Shown here: in pieces, positions 36,958 to 55,167 of the stretch | Position numbering within the stretch: position 1 is the first letter of the stretch | Layout: every line of letters begins with the position of its first letter | Assembly: GCA_965224245.1 (NCBI GenBank) | Contig: OZ245046.1 | Coordinates: 2,976,001-3,040,000, forward strand | DNA length: 64,000 bases | Direction of reading: 5' to 3' | DNA from: Candidatus Eiseniibacteriota bacterium | GTDB taxonomy: Bacteria; Eisenbacteria; RBG-16-71-46; CAZAMP01 | Made by a program: the position numbers and the translations under genes | Notes under the pieces: generated by a model | The model's input: only the letters and a program-made list of their open reading frames with translations | The model's database searches: none | Told to the model about the DNA's origin: nothing

Positions 36958-37503
36958 CTAGTCCATCTCCCGGATGTAGACCGCGTCCTGTCCGTCGATC
37001 TCCTCGAGCTTGACCGAGATGACCTCGCGTCGCGCCGTCGGCACGTTCTTGCCCACGAAGTCGGCCTTGATCGGCAGCTCGCGATGGCCGCGGTCGACCA
37101 GGACCGCGAGCTGAATGGCCTGCGGACGGCCGTAGTCGATGATCGCGTCGAGCGCCGAACGCACCGTGCGCCCCGTGTACAGGACGTCGTCGACCAGGAC
37201 CACGACCATGTCCTCGAGATCGAACATGATGTCGGTGGTGCTCAGCACCGGCTGGTGCGCGATCTTCTCCAGGTCGTCGCGATAGAAGGTGATGTCGAGG
37301 CTTCCGATCGGAAGCTCGACGCCCTCGAACTTCGCGATCTGATCGCGAAGCCGCTCGGCCAGCGGAACACCGCGCCGCCGGATCCCGACGAGCGCGACCC
37401 GATCGGTGCCCTTGTTCCGCTCGACGATCTCGTGCGCGATGCGCACGGTCATGCGCGCCATCTCCTTGGCGTCGATGATCAGGGCCTTCTCTTTCAGGTG
37501 CAC
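36958..37503 (-). CDS. pyrR: Bifunctional pyr operon regulator/uracil phosphoribosyltransferase PyrR
   Basis: [38 protein letters not shown]. Confidence 0.97.
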
Positions 37504-37604: not shown

Positions 37605-37640
37605 CGTCCTTTCCGACCTCACCGGATCGGGTTAAAGGAC
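37605..37640 (-). promoter_or_regulatory. PyrR-binding RNA stem-loop in the pyr leader
   Basis: GUCCUUUAA-CCCGAUCCGGUGAGGUCGG-AAAGGAC matches the CUUUAA..UCCNGNGAGG..AAAG binding-loop consensus; directly upstream of pyrR. Confidence 0.85.
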
Positions 37641-37965: not shown

Positions 37966-37980
37966 TGGCACACGCATTGC
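37966..37980 (+). promoter_or_regulatory. sigma54 (-24/-12) promoter
   Basis: TGGCAC-ACGCA-TTGC, matching TGGCAC-N5-TTGC; predicted TSS about 37992. Confidence 0.75.
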
Positions 37981-37991
37981 GTTATGACAGG

Positions 37992-38406
37992 CGCGTGTGG
38001 ATGGGTGGTGTGGATGTGTTAGGCAAAGCCCCGGAATGGACGCGGATGGAGCGCCGGGCGCGAGTGGGAGAAAAGAGCACGGGTCGAGGGAGTTCCGCGC
38101 TCGATGTTCCAGTCGTTTCCATTCCGGTGGCGGCGCCTTCTCTGACGGATGTGCGGAAAGCTCTCGCACGGCGACTACGACACCCGACGAGTGGCTGCCC
38201 GGTTCTGTGAGGCTCCCCCGACTGCTGGATGGTGCCCAGTCCGACTCCGCCTGGTTGCCGGGATGTCACTCTCGCTCGACACGTCGATCTCGCGACCAGG
38301 CGTCCGCGAACGCGAGAGCTTTCCCTTTCGAGTTGAAGGTGGGGCCGACCTCTCGGGCTGATGTTTTGGGAGGGGCGGTCTTGGGGGCCGGCCTTCACCT
38401 TCTTTT
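37992..38406 (+). ncRNA. Candidate structured non-coding RNA (about 415 nt), family unknown
   Basis: Bounded by a sigma54 promoter and a hairpin with U-tract; perfect 10-bp (38031-40/38118-27) and 13-bp (38155-67/38312-24) inverted repeats with nested stems; no convincing ORF. Confidence 0.55.
38335..38406 (+). terminator. Hairpin with U-tract (plus-strand terminator)
   Basis: GAAGGTGGGGCCG...CGGCCTTCACCTTC followed by TTTT. Confidence 0.6.
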
Positions 38407-38486: not shown

Positions 38487-39278
38487 TCACGAGCCCGGCC
38501 TCGCCGCGGGCGCCGCCATCGTCCGTCCCAGTGTCTTCAAGGACTTGAGGCCCCGATACCGCTCCACGTGGTGGGCAATGAAACGCTCCAGAACGCCGGC
38601 CACCTCCGTGGCTGCCGGACGCATCTCGGCCGAGTACGCCCGGGCCACCTCGAGGGCGCGAGCACGCAGGAGAAACCGGAACACGCCGGCGGCCTCGGAC
38701 GACATCGCGTCGGCGGGCGTTCCACTGGACACGCAGGCCGCGCACACGAAGCCGCCGGCGGCGGCCGAGAACAGGCGCGCGGCGCCGGCATCGCCCTCGC
38801 ACACGGCACAGCTCTCGAGCTCGGGCAGGATCCCGAAGCGCGCGCATGCACGCGCCTGAAACCCGCGAAACGTCACCGCGGCGCGCGCTCCGGTGGTCGC
38901 GGCCAGCACCGACAGCGTCTCGGCGAGATCGGCGTAGACGGCGGGCTCGGCATCGTCCTCGGCCAGGAGCAGGTCACACAGCTCGAGCGCGGCGGACGCG
39001 TAGAAGTAGCGCGTGAGATCGCTCTCGAGGCCGTCGTGGTAGTGCAGCACGTCGGCGTGCGCGGCGAGCTGGAGCTCGCGATCGGGGCGATGGTAGTAAA
39101 TCAGCTCGATCTCGCGAAACGGCTCCAGCGCACCCGTGCACGGGTTCCTCGGGGTGCGATAGCCCTTCGAGATGACCCTGAGCTTGCCGACGTCCTCGCC
39201 GAAGAGCACCGCGATTCGGCTCGTGTCGCCGAACGGGATCCGCTTCAGGAGATAGGCTCTCGTCCGGCGTAGCGCCAT
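38487..39278 (-). CDS. recO: DNA repair protein RecO
   Basis: FGDTSRIAVLF, GKLRVISKG, LEPF, CAVC..CAAC zinc motif, LKSL. Confidence 0.9.
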   Translation of the reverse strand: MALRRTRAYLLKRIPFGDTSRIAVLFGEDVGKLRVISKGYRTPRNPCTGALEPFREIELIYYHRPDRELQLAAHADVLHYHDGLESDLTRYFYASAALELCDLLLAEDDAEPAVYADLAETLSVLAATTGARAAVTFRGFQARACARFGILPELESCAVCEGDAGAARLFSAAAGGFVCAACVSSGTPADAMSSEAAGVFRFLLRARALEVARAYSAEMRPAATEVAGVLERFIAHHVERYRGLKSLKTLGRTMAAPAARPGS

Positions 39279-50321: not shown

Positions 50322-50717
50322 TCAACCCGCGAAACGTCCCGGCCACCCGTGCGACCAGAACGACTTCCCGAAGACCACGCCCGAGACGACACCCACCGCA
50401 TCGGCGAGAAGGTCCCCGACCGATGCGTCCCGGCCCGGCACGTGGCTCTGTATCCATTCGTCGGTCAGGCCCACCGCGATCCCGATCGCGATCGCGATCG
50501 TCGCCGCCGTGATTCCCGTCCCCGTGCGCGGTCCGGATGCCCGCCACAGCAGAAGACCCAGGACGCCGTATGCGGTCGCATGAAGGACCTTGTCCAGCCC
50601 GTAGACGTCGGGGCCCGCCGCCGACGGCCGGGAGGAGGCGACCAGGAGGAGCGCCGCGTAGGCGATCGCCGGGCCTCGTCGGGAGAGCCACCCGGTGCGA
50701 CTCGCGCCCTCGGACAT
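50322..50717 (-). CDS. VanZ-family membrane protein
   Basis: DKVLHATAYGVL, DEWIQSHVPGR, DLLAD. Confidence 0.85.
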   Translation of the reverse strand: MSEGASRTGWLSRRGPAIAYAALLLVASSRPSAAGPDVYGLDKVLHATAYGVLGLLLWRASGPRTGTGITAATIAIAIGIAVGLTDEWIQSHVPGRDASVGDLLADAVGVVSGVVFGKSFWSHGWPGRFAG

Positions 50718-51190
50718 CACGCGCGTGACGCCTCTTCCTTTCGGGCGATCGCGGCAATCGCATCCTGGGGCGTCCGGACCGACAGCAGCCGGCTTTGCAA
50801 CTCGCCATCGTAGAGCAACTTCGAAACGCGGGCGAGCACCCGGACGAAGCCGCCCCGCTCTTCCGGACCCAGAATCATGAAGACCAGGTTGACCGGGCGG
50901 CCGTCCAGCGCCTCGAATTCGATCGGCGTCGAGGGTCGGACGAGCCCCACCGCGAGCCGCTTGACCGCCGAGCACTGGGCGTGCGGAATGGCCACGCCGC
51001 CGCCGATCCCGGTGGACATGACCCGCTCACGCTTCATCACCGCCTCCAGCGCGGCCGCGGCGTCGGTGGTCAGATCCGCCTCGCGAAAGAGCTCGATGGA
51101 GTCGTGGATGAGCGCTTCTTTCGTTCGAACGCTCGCCCCCAGGGACACGCAGCGCTCGTCGATGAGGTCCACGAGCTTGAGTGTGATCAC
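50717..51190 (-). CDS. PTS IIA-like (PtsN/fructose-type EIIA) protein
   Basis: RERVMSTGIGGGVAIPHA, FEALDGRPVNLVF. Confidence 0.88.
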   Translation of the reverse strand: MITLKLVDLIDERCVSLGASVRTKEALIHDSIELFREADLTTDAAAALEAVMKRERVMSTGIGGGVAIPHAQCSAVKRLAVGLVRPSTPIEFEALDGRPVNLVFMILGPEERGGFVRVLARVSKLLYDGELQSRLLSVRTPQDAIAAIARKEEASRA

Positions 51191-51266
51191 GTTGCAGTCC
51201 CCGTGCCCTCGTCGAGGCACTCGGCTAAGAGTCCATCCGGTGCGACGTTCGAAATCGAAGGCAGCG

Positions 51267-51295
51267 AATTTAGCACGCTCACGGGAGCGGTCCAA
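51267..51295 (-). promoter_or_regulatory. sigma70-type promoter of the EIIA-vanZ-aspS operon
   Basis: TTGGAC-N17-TAAATT with TG extension. Confidence 0.5.
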
Positions 51296-51329
51296 GCCGG
51301 ATTCCGGCCCCACATACGGCTTTTGACGG

Positions 51330-52061
51330 CTAATCGGGATCGAACACGACGCGGATCGACGTCCAGGCCGCATGTGGGCGACCGCCCCGACGGGCCGGCT
51401 CGAAGCGCGCGCGCGACGCCACGGCCAGTGCCGGGGCCCGGAACTCGTCCGGGACCGCGACCGCATCGTCGGGAATCTCGGCGTCGGAGACCCGGCCGTC
51501 GGCATCGACCCTCACGCGAACCTCGACCACGACCACGCCCCGCGACCGCGAGGCCTCGGGGTAGTGGGCCGCCGGAAGGGCGACGACGACCGGGCGCGTG
51601 GCGTCGCCCTGGCCGCCCGATTCGGTGACGGACGACAGGGCCGGGCGCGCCGCGGACGATCGTGTTCCGTCGAGCCGCTCCCACGCGGCGCGGGCGGCCG
51701 GCCCTTCGGACCGCTCGGACGGACCGGTCACCTCCGGAGGGGTCTGGAGCGGGGTGTCCGCCGGCTCGGGGCGGGGCTCGGGCGGAGGCTCGGCCACGTC
51801 CGGGAGATCCGGAGGGTGTGCGAGATCATCCGCCCCGGTGGGTGCGCCATCGGCGGACGGGATGGATTCGCGGGCGATCGCGACGACGTGAATGGGATCG
51901 TGCGAGGCGAACGACACCGATGCAGCGCCGATGGCGCCCCGATCGGTGTCGCCGAGCGAGCGGACGAGGTCGGCGGGAACGAGCCAGAGCACGGCACCGT
52001 GGATCACGCAGGCCGCCGCCGTCGATGCGATCCGGTGTCGACGAGGCGGTCGCCGGCGCAT
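51330..52061 (-). CDS. TonB-like protein
   Basis: N-terminal TM helix with His (VIHGAVLW), Pro-rich linker, TonB C-terminal domain (YPEA..VRVRVDADGRV..RFEPA). Confidence 0.7.
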   Translation of the reverse strand: MRRRPPRRHRIASTAAACVIHGAVLWLVPADLVRSLGDTDRGAIGAASVSFASHDPIHVVAIARESIPSADGAPTGADDLAHPPDLPDVAEPPPEPRPEPADTPLQTPPEVTGPSERSEGPAARAAWERLDGTRSSAARPALSSVTESGGQGDATRPVVVALPAAHYPEASRSRGVVVVEVRVRVDADGRVSDAEIPDDAVAVPDEFRAPALAVASRARFEPARRGGRPHAAWTSIRVVFDPD

Positions 52062-52068
52062 GATCGGG

Positions 52069-55000
52069 TCAGGCGCGGCGGTCCAACCCGTAGCGCGCGA
52101 TCTTGTTCTTGAGTCCCTTGCGACTGAGACCCAGCGCCACCGCGGCCCGGCTCTTGTTCCAGGCGTTGTCCTCGAGCGCACGCTGGACGATCTGGCGCTC
52201 GATGCCGTCGAGCTGCTCGCGGAGCGAGACTCCAGTGCGAGCCGGCGGCTCGGGGGCGAGCGTCACCTCGCTTTCCAGAAGACGCGACGGCAGCAGGTCG
52301 ATTCCGATGGTCTCGTTCTCGTCGGCGAGCGTCACCGCCCGACGCATGACCTTCTCCAGCTCGCGCACGTTTCCGGGCCAGTCGTACTCGACGAGCTTCT
52401 GCATGGCGATGCGGGAGATGCCCTTGATTGTCTTGTCCAGCTTCTGGGCGAAGACGTCCGAGAAGAACTCGGCCAGGAGCGGAATGTCGTCCTTGCGACG
52501 ACGCAGCGACGGGACGTGGATCGTGATGTCGTTCAGGCGGAAGTAGAGGTCCTTCAGGAACCGTCCCTCGGCCACCTCACGCCGGAGATCGGCGGACGTC
52601 GCGCAGACGATCCGGATGTCCAGGGGACGGTAGGCGTGGCCGCCCACGGCCCGGACCTCGCCCGAGTCGAGCAGGTGCAGGAAGCGCCGCTGGACCTCGA
52701 GCGTGGTCTTGTCGATCTCGTCGATGAACACCGTGCCGCCCTCGGCCTCCTCCAGGATGCCCTTGCGATCGTGTGTGGCGCCGGTGAACGCGCCCTTCAC
52801 GTGACCGAAGAGCTCGCTCTCGAGCACCGATTCCGACAGAGCCGCGCAGTCCACGGTCGTCAGCGCGGCGTCCGCGCGCGAGCTGCAGAGATGAAGCGCG
52901 CGCGCGATCAGCTTCTTGCCGGTCCCGGTCTCGCCCTGGAGCAGCACGCTGAGGTCGCTGTCGGCCACGCGGCTGACGAGGCCGAGGATCGAGCGCATCT
53001 CGGCGTTCTCGGTGACGATGTCCGCCAGCGCGATGGACCGGTCGATGCGATCGAGCTCCCGCAGGCCGCGACGGTTTCGAATGCTCGCTTCCTCCAGGAA
53101 CCCCGCCAGCTGCCGGGCCAGCGTCATGCAGTAGCTGACCTCGGCCTGATGGAACTCCGGATTGCCGGCGTCCAGCACGCGGTCGACGTAGAGCACGCTC
53201 CACACGCCGGCGCTCTCGCGCAGGGGTACCGCGATCGCGGACTCGACCTCACGCCCGCTGGCCAGGGGGCCCAGGCTGCGTCGCTTGTTCCCACTGGCCA
53301 TGCCCAGGAACACCGCCGGACGGTCGCTGGCCGGCCAGCCGGCCGTGAACGCCGACGGGCGGGCGAACGACCTGCCGATGGAGAGCGCCGGGATGCCGTG
53401 GGCGCCGATCACTCTCACGTCCGTGCTCGCCACGTCGAGCATGCTCGCACCGGCACACGGGATCGTGGCGGTGAGCACGCCGAGGAACTCGGAGATCTTG
53501 TCGTCGAAGGACCGATCGGACTTCAGCACGCGCTCCATCTTCTGGTGCGCGTCGAGGCTGTCCTTCGTCGACACGGCGTTCTCGACGAACGTGCACTCCA
53601 GACGCTGCTGCACCTCGCTCAGCTGATCGTCGAGCGCTCGGGCCCCGTCGAGCGTGCCCAGGAGCTCACGTGCCCGTCCGAGACGCTCGGCCGCGCGATC
53701 GACGGCGCGGTGCCGGATGTCCTCGTCGGCGATCGCCAGGAGGGTGCGGAACTCGGCCCGCGGGTGACGCAGCGCGCGGTACCCGTCGAGCGCGTCCTGG
53801 AGGTGCTGGACGCCGCTGATGCGGGTGCGGTCGTCGGTGGACTCGAGCTCCAGGCGTCCCCGGAACTCGATGACGCGGGTGAGCCAGAACGACTCGCCGG
53901 CGCGGCGCAGGATCTCGACCGCCTGGCGAGCGGCCTCATCGGCCCGCGCGTGATCTCCGGCTCCGGCGTGCAGCTCACCGATCGTCAGGAGGAGGCGCGC
54001 TTCCAGAAGCCGGTTGCTGGTGGTCCTGGCGGACTCGAGCCCGCGGGACGCCACCGTGAACGCCTCGCCCTCGCGTCCCTCCAGCGCCCTGACCCGTGCG
54101 ATGACGCGGTCCAGCTCGCCCTCGAGACGGTTGCGCCCCAGGCGCGCCGAGATGTCGGCCGCCTTGGCCGCGAAACCGGCTGCGTCCGCCGCGTTGCCGG
54201 CGCCCAGCGCCGACTCGGTGAGACCGAGATACGCGGACAGCATGCCGTAGAGGTGCTGCTGCAGGGCGCTCAGCTCGAGCGCGCTCCAGAACAGCTCGCG
54301 CGCGCGATCGTATTCCTCGCGCATCAGATGAACGTCGGCCTTGCCCGCCAGCGCGAGCGCGGAGCTCGCCGCGTCGCCGATCTCGCGGGACTTGCGGTGC
54401 GATTGCTCGAAGTCGTCGAGGGCCTCGTCGAGCTGACCCAGCATGGTGTGCAGGATGCCCTGGGTCTGGAGCACGGCCGGCAGCCCGGAGTAGTCCCCCT
54501 CGATCGACATGAGGTTCTGGGAGACCTGGCAACACTCGAGCGCGCGGCTCCAGTTGCACGCGCGGCGGTGAAGCATGCCGATGTTTCGGTAGATGCGCGC
54601 GACGTTGGACAGGCTCCCGAGATCCTTGAAGACGGTCAGGGCGTCCTGGTACATGCGCATGGCCGTGTCGACGTCGTCGCCGCGGTGGGCGATGCTGCCA
54701 CGCAGCTGGAGTGCCTGGCCCAGCTCGAGGCACGGCTCGGTGTCGACGAGGAGGTGCATGGCCGCGTCGACGTTCCGGGTCGCCTCGCCCAGCTGGCCGC
54801 GGCGGGTGCGAACCCGCGCGAGCTGAAGCTCGATCCGCACGCGCTCGATCAGCGGCGTGGCCTCGGTCATCGCGTGAGCGGCCTCGAGCGCCGTCGACTG
54901 CGCGTCGACGGCCTCTCCCAGACGAAGCTGGCAGTCGCTGATGCGACGCAGCACGGACGCGCGCAGCCGGGCGCCGTCACCGTTCAACGTCGCGAGTGCT

Positions 55001-55167
55001 TCGCGATAGTGCTGGACGGCGCCGGCGAAGTCGGCGCTCTCTGCGGAGAGGTCGCCGAGCTCGATCAGCCGCGCGCCGGTCGGTCGCGATCGGTCGGTGT
55101 CGTTGGGATCGCCGGCGGACGGCGCCTGGGCGGTCCGGTCGACGTTTCGAGCCTCATGCGTAGCCAT
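52069..55167 (-). CDS. sigma54-dependent enhancer-binding protein with N-terminal TPR array and GAF-like domain
   Basis: About 500 aa of TPR-like helices; GETGTGK, ESELFGHVKGAFTGA, FIDEI, WPGNVREL; Fis-type HTH (NKSRAAVALGLSR). Confidence 0.92.
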   Translation of the reverse strand: MATHEARNVDRTAQAPSAGDPNDTDRSRPTGARLIELGDLSAESADFAGAVQHYREALATLNGDGARLRASVLRRISDCQLRLGEAVDAQSTALEAAHAMTEATPLIERVRIELQLARVRTRRGQLGEATRNVDAAMHLLVDTEPCLELGQALQLRGSIAHRGDDVDTAMRMYQDALTVFKDLGSLSNVARIYRNIGMLHRRACNWSRALECCQVSQNLMSIEGDYSGLPAVLQTQGILHTMLGQLDEALDDFEQSHRKSREIGDAASSALALAGKADVHLMREEYDRARELFWSALELSALQQHLYGMLSAYLGLTESALGAGNAADAAGFAAKAADISARLGRNRLEGELDRVIARVRALEGREGEAFTVASRGLESARTTSNRLLEARLLLTIGELHAGAGDHARADEAARQAVEILRRAGESFWLTRVIEFRGRLELESTDDRTRISGVQHLQDALDGYRALRHPRAEFRTLLAIADEDIRHRAVDRAAERLGRARELLGTLDGARALDDQLSEVQQRLECTFVENAVSTKDSLDAHQKMERVLKSDRSFDDKISEFLGVLTATIPCAGASMLDVASTDVRVIGAHGIPALSIGRSFARPSAFTAGWPASDRPAVFLGMASGNKRRSLGPLASGREVESAIAVPLRESAGVWSVLYVDRVLDAGNPEFHQAEVSYCMTLARQLAGFLEEASIRNRRGLRELDRIDRSIALADIVTENAEMRSILGLVSRVADSDLSVLLQGETGTGKKLIARALHLCSSRADAALTTVDCAALSESVLESELFGHVKGAFTGATHDRKGILEEAEGGTVFIDEIDKTTLEVQRRFLHLLDSGEVRAVGGHAYRPLDIRIVCATSADLRREVAEGRFLKDLYFRLNDITIHVPSLRRRKDDIPLLAEFFSDVFAQKLDKTIKGISRIAMQKLVEYDWPGNVRELEKVMRRAVTLADENETIGIDLLPSRLLESEVTLAPEPPARTGVSLREQLDGIERQIVQRALEDNAWNKSRAAVALGLSRKGLKNKIARYGLDRRA

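Follow-up and report, generated by a model that had tools for sequence, protein, structure and literature searches.

A candidate sigma-54-dependent regulatory RNA in the pyrR-recO gap of an Eisenbacteria genome and its sister genus

We analysed a 64-kb stretch of DNA (64,000 nucleotides; hereafter the window) from the 6.9-Mb genome of a Candidatus Eiseniibacteriota bacterium (G000; contig OZ245046.1; 68.6% GC), in which the gap between the genes pyrR and recO contains a candidate regulatory RNA gene. Both pyrR (36958-37503) and recO (38487-39278) were confirmed by Pfam and lie on the minus strand, as a preliminary description of the locus had reported, and the gap between them measures 983 nt. 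The candidate, referred to below as the RNA unit, would be read from the plus strand. As recO converges on it, there is no same-strand gene 3' of the RNA unit in G000. All the plus-strand sequences and coordinates of the preliminary description were found to be exact on re-reading. The features of the unit are as follows.

37966..37980, plus strand: sigma-54-type promoter with -24 and -12 boxes (TGGCAC-N5-TTGC), the boxes being conserved in the sister genome G001
37992..38027, plus strand: predicted transcript start and G/U-rich 5' segment with GG tracts, aligning loosely with G001
38028..38131, plus strand: Domain 1, a long irregular hairpin closed by a 10-bp stem (38031-40/38118-27)
38071..38097, plus strand: invariant 27-mer at the tip of domain 1, an A-rich run followed by a small hairpin with GAGGGAG in its loop
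38155..38324, plus strand: Domain 2, 170 nt, multi-branched, with a perfect 13-bp closing stem; lineage-specific
38335..38402, plus strand: 3' hairpin, a probable terminator stem, with GGGAGGGG in or near its loop
38403..38410, plus strand: U-rich tail and predicted 3' end (CTTCTTTTCC region)

The main comparison was made with G001, a metagenome-assembled genome from a sister genus and the sole other genome of the family of G000. Both belong to a class set of 206 genomes, which is identical to the phylum set; the genome tallies include the unpublished genome G053, on which no claim depends. The compared neighbour proteins of G000 and G001 are 50-75% identical, with 72% for PyrR, 60% for RecO, 64% for a phosphoglycerate mutase-family protein and 75% for an acyl-CoA dehydrogenase. 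Synteny is kept on both sides of the RNA unit, out to a sigma-54 activator gene with a tetratricopeptide repeat (TPR) region 14-16 kb away. The single difference in gene order is a class I/II aminotransferase gene of G001 (L002 3-1121, minus strand; L053 17670-18455), which lies between the RNA unit and recO, is co-directional with the RNA and begins about 200 nt past the 3' hairpin. No close ortholog of this aminotransferase was found anywhere in G000, where the best homolog is 35% identical and located elsewhere.

The promoter consists of TGGCAC (37966-71), the spacer ACGCA and TTGC (37977-80) on the plus strand, so that the near-consensus sigma-54 site first noticed at this position is indeed present. 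Its counterpart in G001 reads TGGCAT-GGTGG-TTGC (L002 1624-1610, minus strand) and is divergent from pyrR. The -24 and -12 boxes are kept between the two genomes, while the spacer and the flanks are unrelated. The distance from TTGC to the 27-mer is 90 nt in G000 and 82 nt in G001, and by our own arithmetic the chance of finding such a promoter site within 20 nt on either side of the equivalent position is less than 1e-4. A transcript start near 37992 would lie about 12 nt past the GC of the -12 box, which is the usual sigma-54 geometry. Sigma-54 is heavily used by G000: the factor itself is encoded there (rpoN; Sigma54_DBD, 220 bits), and PF00158 activator domains (E<=0.001) gave 42 matches in G000 and 33 in G001. 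TGGCAY-N5-TTGC occurs at 22 sites in the whole G000 genome. At 19 of them, an open reading frame (ORF) with high G+C content at third codon positions (GC3) starts 20-330 nt downstream, as judged by a method that can also catch internal starts. The three sites without such an ORF within 500 nt are one before a low-GC3 gene, one inside an opposite-strand gene and that of the RNA locus.

G001 shows the same order of features as G000: pyrR, divergent sigma-54 boxes, a long hairpin, a shorter middle part and a 3' hairpin. When the two gaps were aligned with each other at high sensitivity, only three conserved blocks emerged, namely the PyrR binding site of the pyrR leader, the 27-mer and the 3' hairpin. 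The 27-mer is identical at 27 of 27 positions (E = 4.5e-8), indicating constraint, as unconstrained DNA should diverge where proteins share only 50-75% of their residues. The 3' hairpin aligns over 56 columns with 73% identity. The counterpart of domain 1 in G001 has another stem sequence and is likewise unusually stable (z = -4.29, with none of 200 shuffles as stable), and it carries the 27-mer at its tip. Domain 2 is not conserved; about 80 nt without detectable similarity stand at the equivalent place in G001, and we read domain 2 as a probable lineage-specific expansion of a variable spacer. With the ends predicted here, the RNA would be about 415 nt long in G000 and about 280 nt in G001.

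The folding of the individual elements was then compared with shuffled sequences. Two closing stems given in the preliminary description were recovered, CCGGAATGGA (38031-40) pairing with TCCATTCCGG (38118-27) in domain 1 and GGAAAGCTCTCGC (38155-67) pairing with GCGAGAGCTTTCC (38312-24) in domain 2, while the inner pairing CGCGGA/TCCGCG that it had placed within domain 1 is missing from the minimum-energy fold. These perfect stems of 13 and 10 bp are the longest in the stretch; among 100 dinucleotide shuffles, none reached 13 bp and 7 reached 10 bp. Domain 1 alone has a minimum free energy of -55.4 kcal/mol (z = -4.27; 0/200 shuffles as stable) and is more stable on the promoter strand than on the opposite strand, by 7.8 kcal/mol in G000 and 6.4 kcal/mol in G001. 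Within its tip, the small hairpin of the 27-mer has a 10-nt loop reading UCGAGGGAGU in both genomes, and the GGA in this loop has an unpaired probability of 0.63 in G000 and 0.72 in G001. The stability of domain 2 shows no strand asymmetry.

The 3' hairpin is also more stable than expected (z = -3.01, with 2 of 200 shuffles as stable, in G000; z = -3.71 in G001). On the promoter strand it reaches -36.6 kcal/mol in G000 and -37.1 kcal/mol in G001, compared with -23.7 and -23.8 kcal/mol on the opposite strand. This asymmetry of about 13 kcal/mol is due to G-U pairs, of which there are 9 in G000 and 8 in G001, and its presence in both genomes points to an RNA, read from the promoter strand, as the target of selection. 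A terminator scan detected the inner part of the hairpin (38382-38397). The hairpin with a U-tract described earlier is present, its U-rich tail being weak in G000 and weaker in G001 (AGTTTCC). GGGAG in the hairpin loop has an unpaired probability of 0.60 in G000 and 0.97 in G001. RNAalifold prefers a fold of the 3' element in which GGGAGG pairs with CCUCYC over one that leaves GGGAGG in the loop; these are two candidate folds of the element.

By eye, at least four closely spaced GG tracts were seen at the 5' ends of both RNAs, in GGAUGGGUGGUGUGG and GGUGGGGAGGUGG (window 37998-38017, plus strand, and L002 about 1590-1570, minus strand), a pattern that fits a two-layer G-quadruplex.

The unit does not look like a protein-coding gene. 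GC3 is flat across it in all three plus-strand frames (0.53-0.76, vs 0.80-0.93 in picked neighbouring ORFs). When the frames were compared with G001, amino-acid similarity was confined to 9-10 residues, those of the 27-mer, and appeared in two frames at once, with zero synonymous differences among these residues. This bears out the earlier statement that no recognisable protein ORF is present. Nor does it belong to a known RNA family: Rfam 15 gave no gathering-level match in the 64-kb window, so there is no tRNA, riboswitch or other catalogued RNA in it, and at E<=10 there were only sub-threshold chance matches on the RNA strand and the PyrR site on the other strand. The novelty first claimed for the RNA thus withstood the Rfam scan. 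The absence of the hallmarks of tmRNA, RNase P and SRP RNA, which had been judged by eye, agrees with the detection of each of these above threshold elsewhere in the genome (RNase P at C1:2219515, SRP at C1:465376 and tmRNA at C1:3196446; 6S RNA at C1:1389857).

To define the distribution of the unit, we searched at several levels. The motif, as a 24-mer or 23-mer with at most 3 mismatches, occurred in 2 of the 206 class genomes, G000 and G001, and the reversed control in one genome. An exact 20-mer had a single match in the contigs of species-representative genomes, on the G001 contig, and no match in metagenome contigs. A pattern of promoter plus 12-mer hit two loci in metagenome contigs, which were rejected as ordinary sequence without likeness beyond the pattern. 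DNA searches of 61 relatives returned G001 and two short GC-rich matches, in G045 and G053, whose 3-kb loci lack the sigma-54 motif. A covariance model spanning promoter to tip (R1) was run over 151 class genomes; its 6 weak matches outside the family (15.4-20.6 bits) were discarded, none having both promoter and motif, and 2 of the 3 checked R1 matches sit inside long high-GC3 ORFs. At 28 other pyrR loci of the class, no TGGCA-type site was found, and a weaker GGCAT-N5-TTGC match was present at one of them (L024, 1.5 kb from pyrR). The genes pyrR and recO are side by side at 2 of these 28 loci, with a gap of about 160 nt in one case and no more than about 720 nt in the other, and without a sigma-54 site. 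Searches for paralogs and repeats in G000 found none, indicating that the unit is single-copy. The homolog search that the preliminary description had suggested as a check therefore leaves G001 as the only relative to carry the RNA unit. Such a narrow distribution suggests that the unit either arose within this family, in its widened pyrR-recO gap, or was lost everywhere else.

With moderate confidence, we interpret the locus as a stand-alone, sigma-54-promoted noncoding RNA gene that ends at the conserved hairpin and most likely encodes a trans-acting riboregulator. The interpretation as an RNA gene appears well supported by the comparison with G001, and in G000 the promoter, tip and 3' hairpin have all been retained without any gene behind them. 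The initial proposal of a novel small RNA driven by sigma-54 holds in so far as the boxes, the 27-nt tip and the strand-specific 3' hairpin are kept in G001, but it does not extend to domain 2, which is not kept. A lineage-restricted, sigma-54-dependent regulatory RNA is the best reading that we infer from the two genomes.

Under this best reading, the RNA would consist of a G-rich 5' segment, the domain 1 hairpin, a variable middle spacer and the conserved 3' hairpin. Because its promoter is of the sigma-54 type, it would need one of the many enhancer-binding activators of the genome and would be silent until that activator is triggered; most likely it would be a riboregulator that is induced by a signal and acts in trans. 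The tip of domain 1 and the 3' hairpin loop are taken as the likely working surfaces because they are the sole visibly constrained parts of the RNA body and expose GGGAG; the invariant 27-nt tip would serve as the effector surface, aided by the 3' hairpin loop. In both loops the exposed sequence is purine-rich and resembles a ribosome-binding site. The RNA would most probably act by base pairing, independently of Hfq, with stretches of its target mRNAs that are rich in C and U; sequestration of a single RNA-binding protein ranks second. A search for Hfq (PF17209) was negative in both G000 and G001, each of which is 97% complete, so that neither a sponge for Hfq like CrcZ nor a pairing RNA that needs Hfq is likely. 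Pairing of the motif with rRNA was considered and rejected, as 30 of 30 shuffled motifs paired at least as well.

Several observations weigh against a regulatory RNA gene of this kind. Base composition predicts about 20 promoter-like sites genome-wide, compared with the 22 seen (our own arithmetic), and for this reason the promoter call rests on conservation in G001 and not on the match alone. No activator site or motif common to G000 and G001 was found in the regions upstream of the promoter. The stems of domain 1 cannot be aligned by position between the two genomes, and the sequence alignment made by MAFFT does not follow the pairing register. With two sequences only, the evidence from covariation is limited to 3 of 20 predicted pairs changed on both sides in the RNAalifold analysis of the 3' element. 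The whole 426-nt stretch folds unexceptionally (z = -0.16; 40 of 100 shuffles fold as well), so that the term highly structured, used in the preliminary description, fits domain 1 and the 3' hairpin but not the stretch as a whole. As for base pairing, no extended complementary target was found in G000, the best complementary or identical runs being 13-19 nt with E>=0.12; all five of the target candidates checked lie inside long high-GC3 ORFs; and a purine-rich loop resembling a ribosome-binding site would be unusual as a pairing seed. Finally, in G001 the same strand carries the aminotransferase gene about 200 nt beyond the unit, and the terminator between the two is weak.

This last arrangement raises the alternative that the unit is a cis-acting element, namely the long sigma-54-driven 5' leader of the aminotransferase gene, which G000 would have lost while keeping an orphan leader, perhaps one without any remaining function. 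The position and strand of the gene and the weak U-tail in G001 fit such a leader, and gain of the RNA together with the gene, followed by loss of the gene, would require as many events as the alternative. However, G000 has no close ortholog of the aminotransferase, yet its boxes, 27-mer and strand-specific hairpin are intact, and it has even gained the 170-nt domain 2. The short pyrR-recO gaps at the two other class loci with this gene order are too small for an aminotransferase gene, so that insertion of the gene in G001 is favoured, and no Rfam riboswitch or leader family matches the unit. We therefore regard an orphan leader as unlikely. Equally, the locus might hold no RNA gene, and the conserved pieces might be DNA-level elements, either protein sites upstream of pyrR or remnants of a shared insertion, next to a silent sigma-54 match. 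The composition-expected rate of promoter-like sites, the occurrence in two genomes only and the unexceptional fold of the whole stretch would all agree with this. On the other hand, DNA sites would hardly account for the conservation of both the -24 and -12 boxes at a matching distance from the 27-mer, or for the fact that in both genomes the 3' hairpin is strand-asymmetric through its G-U pairs, which is a signature at the RNA level; moreover, the unit is single-copy rather than a repeat and lies at least 330 nt from the PyrR leader site. DNA-level elements, too, seem improbable to us. A small-protein mRNA, in which a short plus-strand frame such as 37902/37997..38210 encodes a peptide, finds a basis in the open frames of G000 (102 and 183 aa) and G001 (40 and 67 aa), but these frames differ in length and in their ends between the genomes, resemble each other only over the 9-10 residues of the 27-mer without synonymous variation, and have a GC3 well below that of the neighbouring ORFs. 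A peptide is accordingly very improbable.

The remaining explanation concerns the function of the RNA and not its existence: as the main rival in terms of mechanism, it might titrate the translational repressor CsrA through GGA hairpin loops, as CsrB/RsmZ do, with sigma-54 providing the tie to the flagellar flgN-fliW-csrA operon, which is likewise sigma-54-driven. CsrA is encoded in both G000 (82.5 bits) and G001 (84.9 bits), csrA follows a strict sigma-54 site, and the two conserved accessible loops, which hold GGA in an A/G-GGGAG context, could hold one CsrA dimer. Like CsrB/RsmZ, the RNA thus presents GGA in hairpin loops resembling a ribosome-binding site in a host that has CsrA. GGAUG is also over-represented in G000, with 6 occurrences against 0.8 expected and none of 500 shuffles reaching this number, but there is none in G001. 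Unlike in CsrB/RsmZ, GGA is neither enriched (13 vs 12.3 expected in G000; 10 vs 9.5 expected in G001) nor preferentially exposed: its mean unpaired probability of 0.34 and 0.33 equals the level of all nucleotides, 4 of 13 sites in G000 and 2 of 10 in G001 exceed 0.5, and the conserved GGA loops number only two. The RNAalifold consensus would even hide the GGA of the 3' loop by pairing GGGAGG with CCUCYC. In addition, the host CsrA is of the FliW-partnered type, fliW being immediately upstream of csrA, and in B. subtilis this type is reported to be antagonised by the protein FliW (PMC13443453). A multi-site sponge like CsrB fails, since GGA counts and accessibility are at background in both genomes, and titration of CsrA by the RNA is in general doubtful. 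A narrower version, in which a decoy induced through sigma-54 captures the FliW-partnered CsrA by means of the two invariant GGGAG hairpin loops, is a long shot. If it were true, Csr control would be coupled to a sigma-54 signal, and an uncultured phylum would possess an RNA that antagonises the ancestral, flagellum-linked type of CsrA. Mimicry of a flagellin leader was examined and dismissed, the csrA-flagellin spacer having no similar hairpin. The flgN-fliW-csrA cluster itself lies at C1:1316921-1319285 of G000 (L040), behind a strict TGGCAC-N5-TTGCA site; the 263-aa ORF that comes after it matches Flagellin_N weakly.

When the stand-alone sigma-54-dependent RNA that we prefer is set beside known systems, the closest analogue in kind appears to be Pxr of Myxococcus, a genus with a large number of sigma-54 activators. 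Pxr, of M. xanthus and its relatives, is described as a stand-alone intergenic small RNA gene of 108 nt with multiple stem-loops, the first of which are conserved and of functional importance. Its promoter appears to be of the sigma-54 type, its distribution is limited to a single lineage of high-GC hosts, and it adjoins nla19, the gene of its putative activator (PMC5568312). The RNA described here is likewise stand-alone, intergenic and confined to one lineage, and its high-GC host has the 42 PF00158 matches mentioned above. Unlike Pxr, it would be about 415 or 280 nt long and has no adjacent activator gene, and the Pxr probe sequence has no counterpart in it, as judged by eye.

CrcZ is about 400 nt long and titrates Hfq/Crc by means of repeated A-rich motifs. 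Together with CrcY and CrcX, it belongs to a group of RpoN-dependent noncoding RNAs of Pseudomonas that are reported to be activated by the enhancer-binding protein CbrB and to sequester protein (PMC8657755). The candidate shares with CrcZ the class of promoter and a similar size, but it has a single A-rich run and no repeated motif, and neither host genome yielded Hfq. In the Qrr RNAs, which are about 100 nt long, Hfq-dependent and often multi-copy, a long block invariant between species is the region that pairs with multiple targets. The Qrr promoters of Vibrio are reported to depend on sigma-54 and the activator LuxO (PMC10162802). A sigma-54 promoter and a long block invariant between species are thus common to Qrr and the RNA unit, but the latter is single-copy, about four times longer and found in a genome in which Hfq was not found.

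The element is real, new as a family, ordinary in kind and very narrowly distributed. Its class of promoter and its stand-alone organisation are also those of Pxr, CrcZ and Qrr, but no Rfam family resembles it in sequence, and so it represents a new family of a known kind. A literature search on small RNAs of Eisenbacteria turned up a paper on CsrA variation, which does not describe such an RNA. If transcribed as predicted, the unit would be a first candidate riboregulator in its host phylum, and it would add a sigma-54-dependent RNA from outside the lineages of the systems compared above (Pseudomonas, Vibrio and Myxococcus), in a host with dozens of enhancer-binding activators. The find is modest, given that its kind is already known and that two genomes carry it, and the invariant 27-mer offers a practical starting point for pull-down or gel-shift experiments and for target searches.

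With respect to a possible activator, the activator gene nearest to the RNA unit is 14 kb away, and none is adjacent. This gene, at window 50717-55167 on the minus strand, encodes a sigma-54 activator of 1032 aa whose N-terminal part is a TPR region, and adjoins a gene for a PtsN-like EIIA-2 protein of the phosphotransferase system. It is syntenic in G001, where the protein is 50% identical, and lies 14-16 kb from the RNA in both genomes; nothing was found that links it to activation of the RNA. In G001 only, a perfect 10-bp inverted repeat, AGCTATTGCA-N6-TGCAATAGCT (L002 1758-1783), lies about 135-160 bp upstream of the promoter and is a candidate activator site without a counterpart in G000. 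Elsewhere in G000, an intergenic island of low GC content contains a sigma-54-like site (C1:1025770, minus strand); downstream of this site lies a low-GC3 ORF with a signal-peptide-like start.

On the opposite side of the gap, the PyrR binding site (37606-37640, minus strand; Rfam RF00515) scores 28.5 bits, under the gathering score of 54, and constitutes the pyrR leader; G001 shares 29 of the 31 positions of its hairpin. It is the sole match to the PyrR model, with none on the RNA strand, and a role of the RNA as a PyrR decoy was rejected accordingly. About 25 nt upstream of the PyrR hairpin in the direction of pyrR, a conserved TATCACA was seen by eye, a possible -10 box for the transcription of pyrR.

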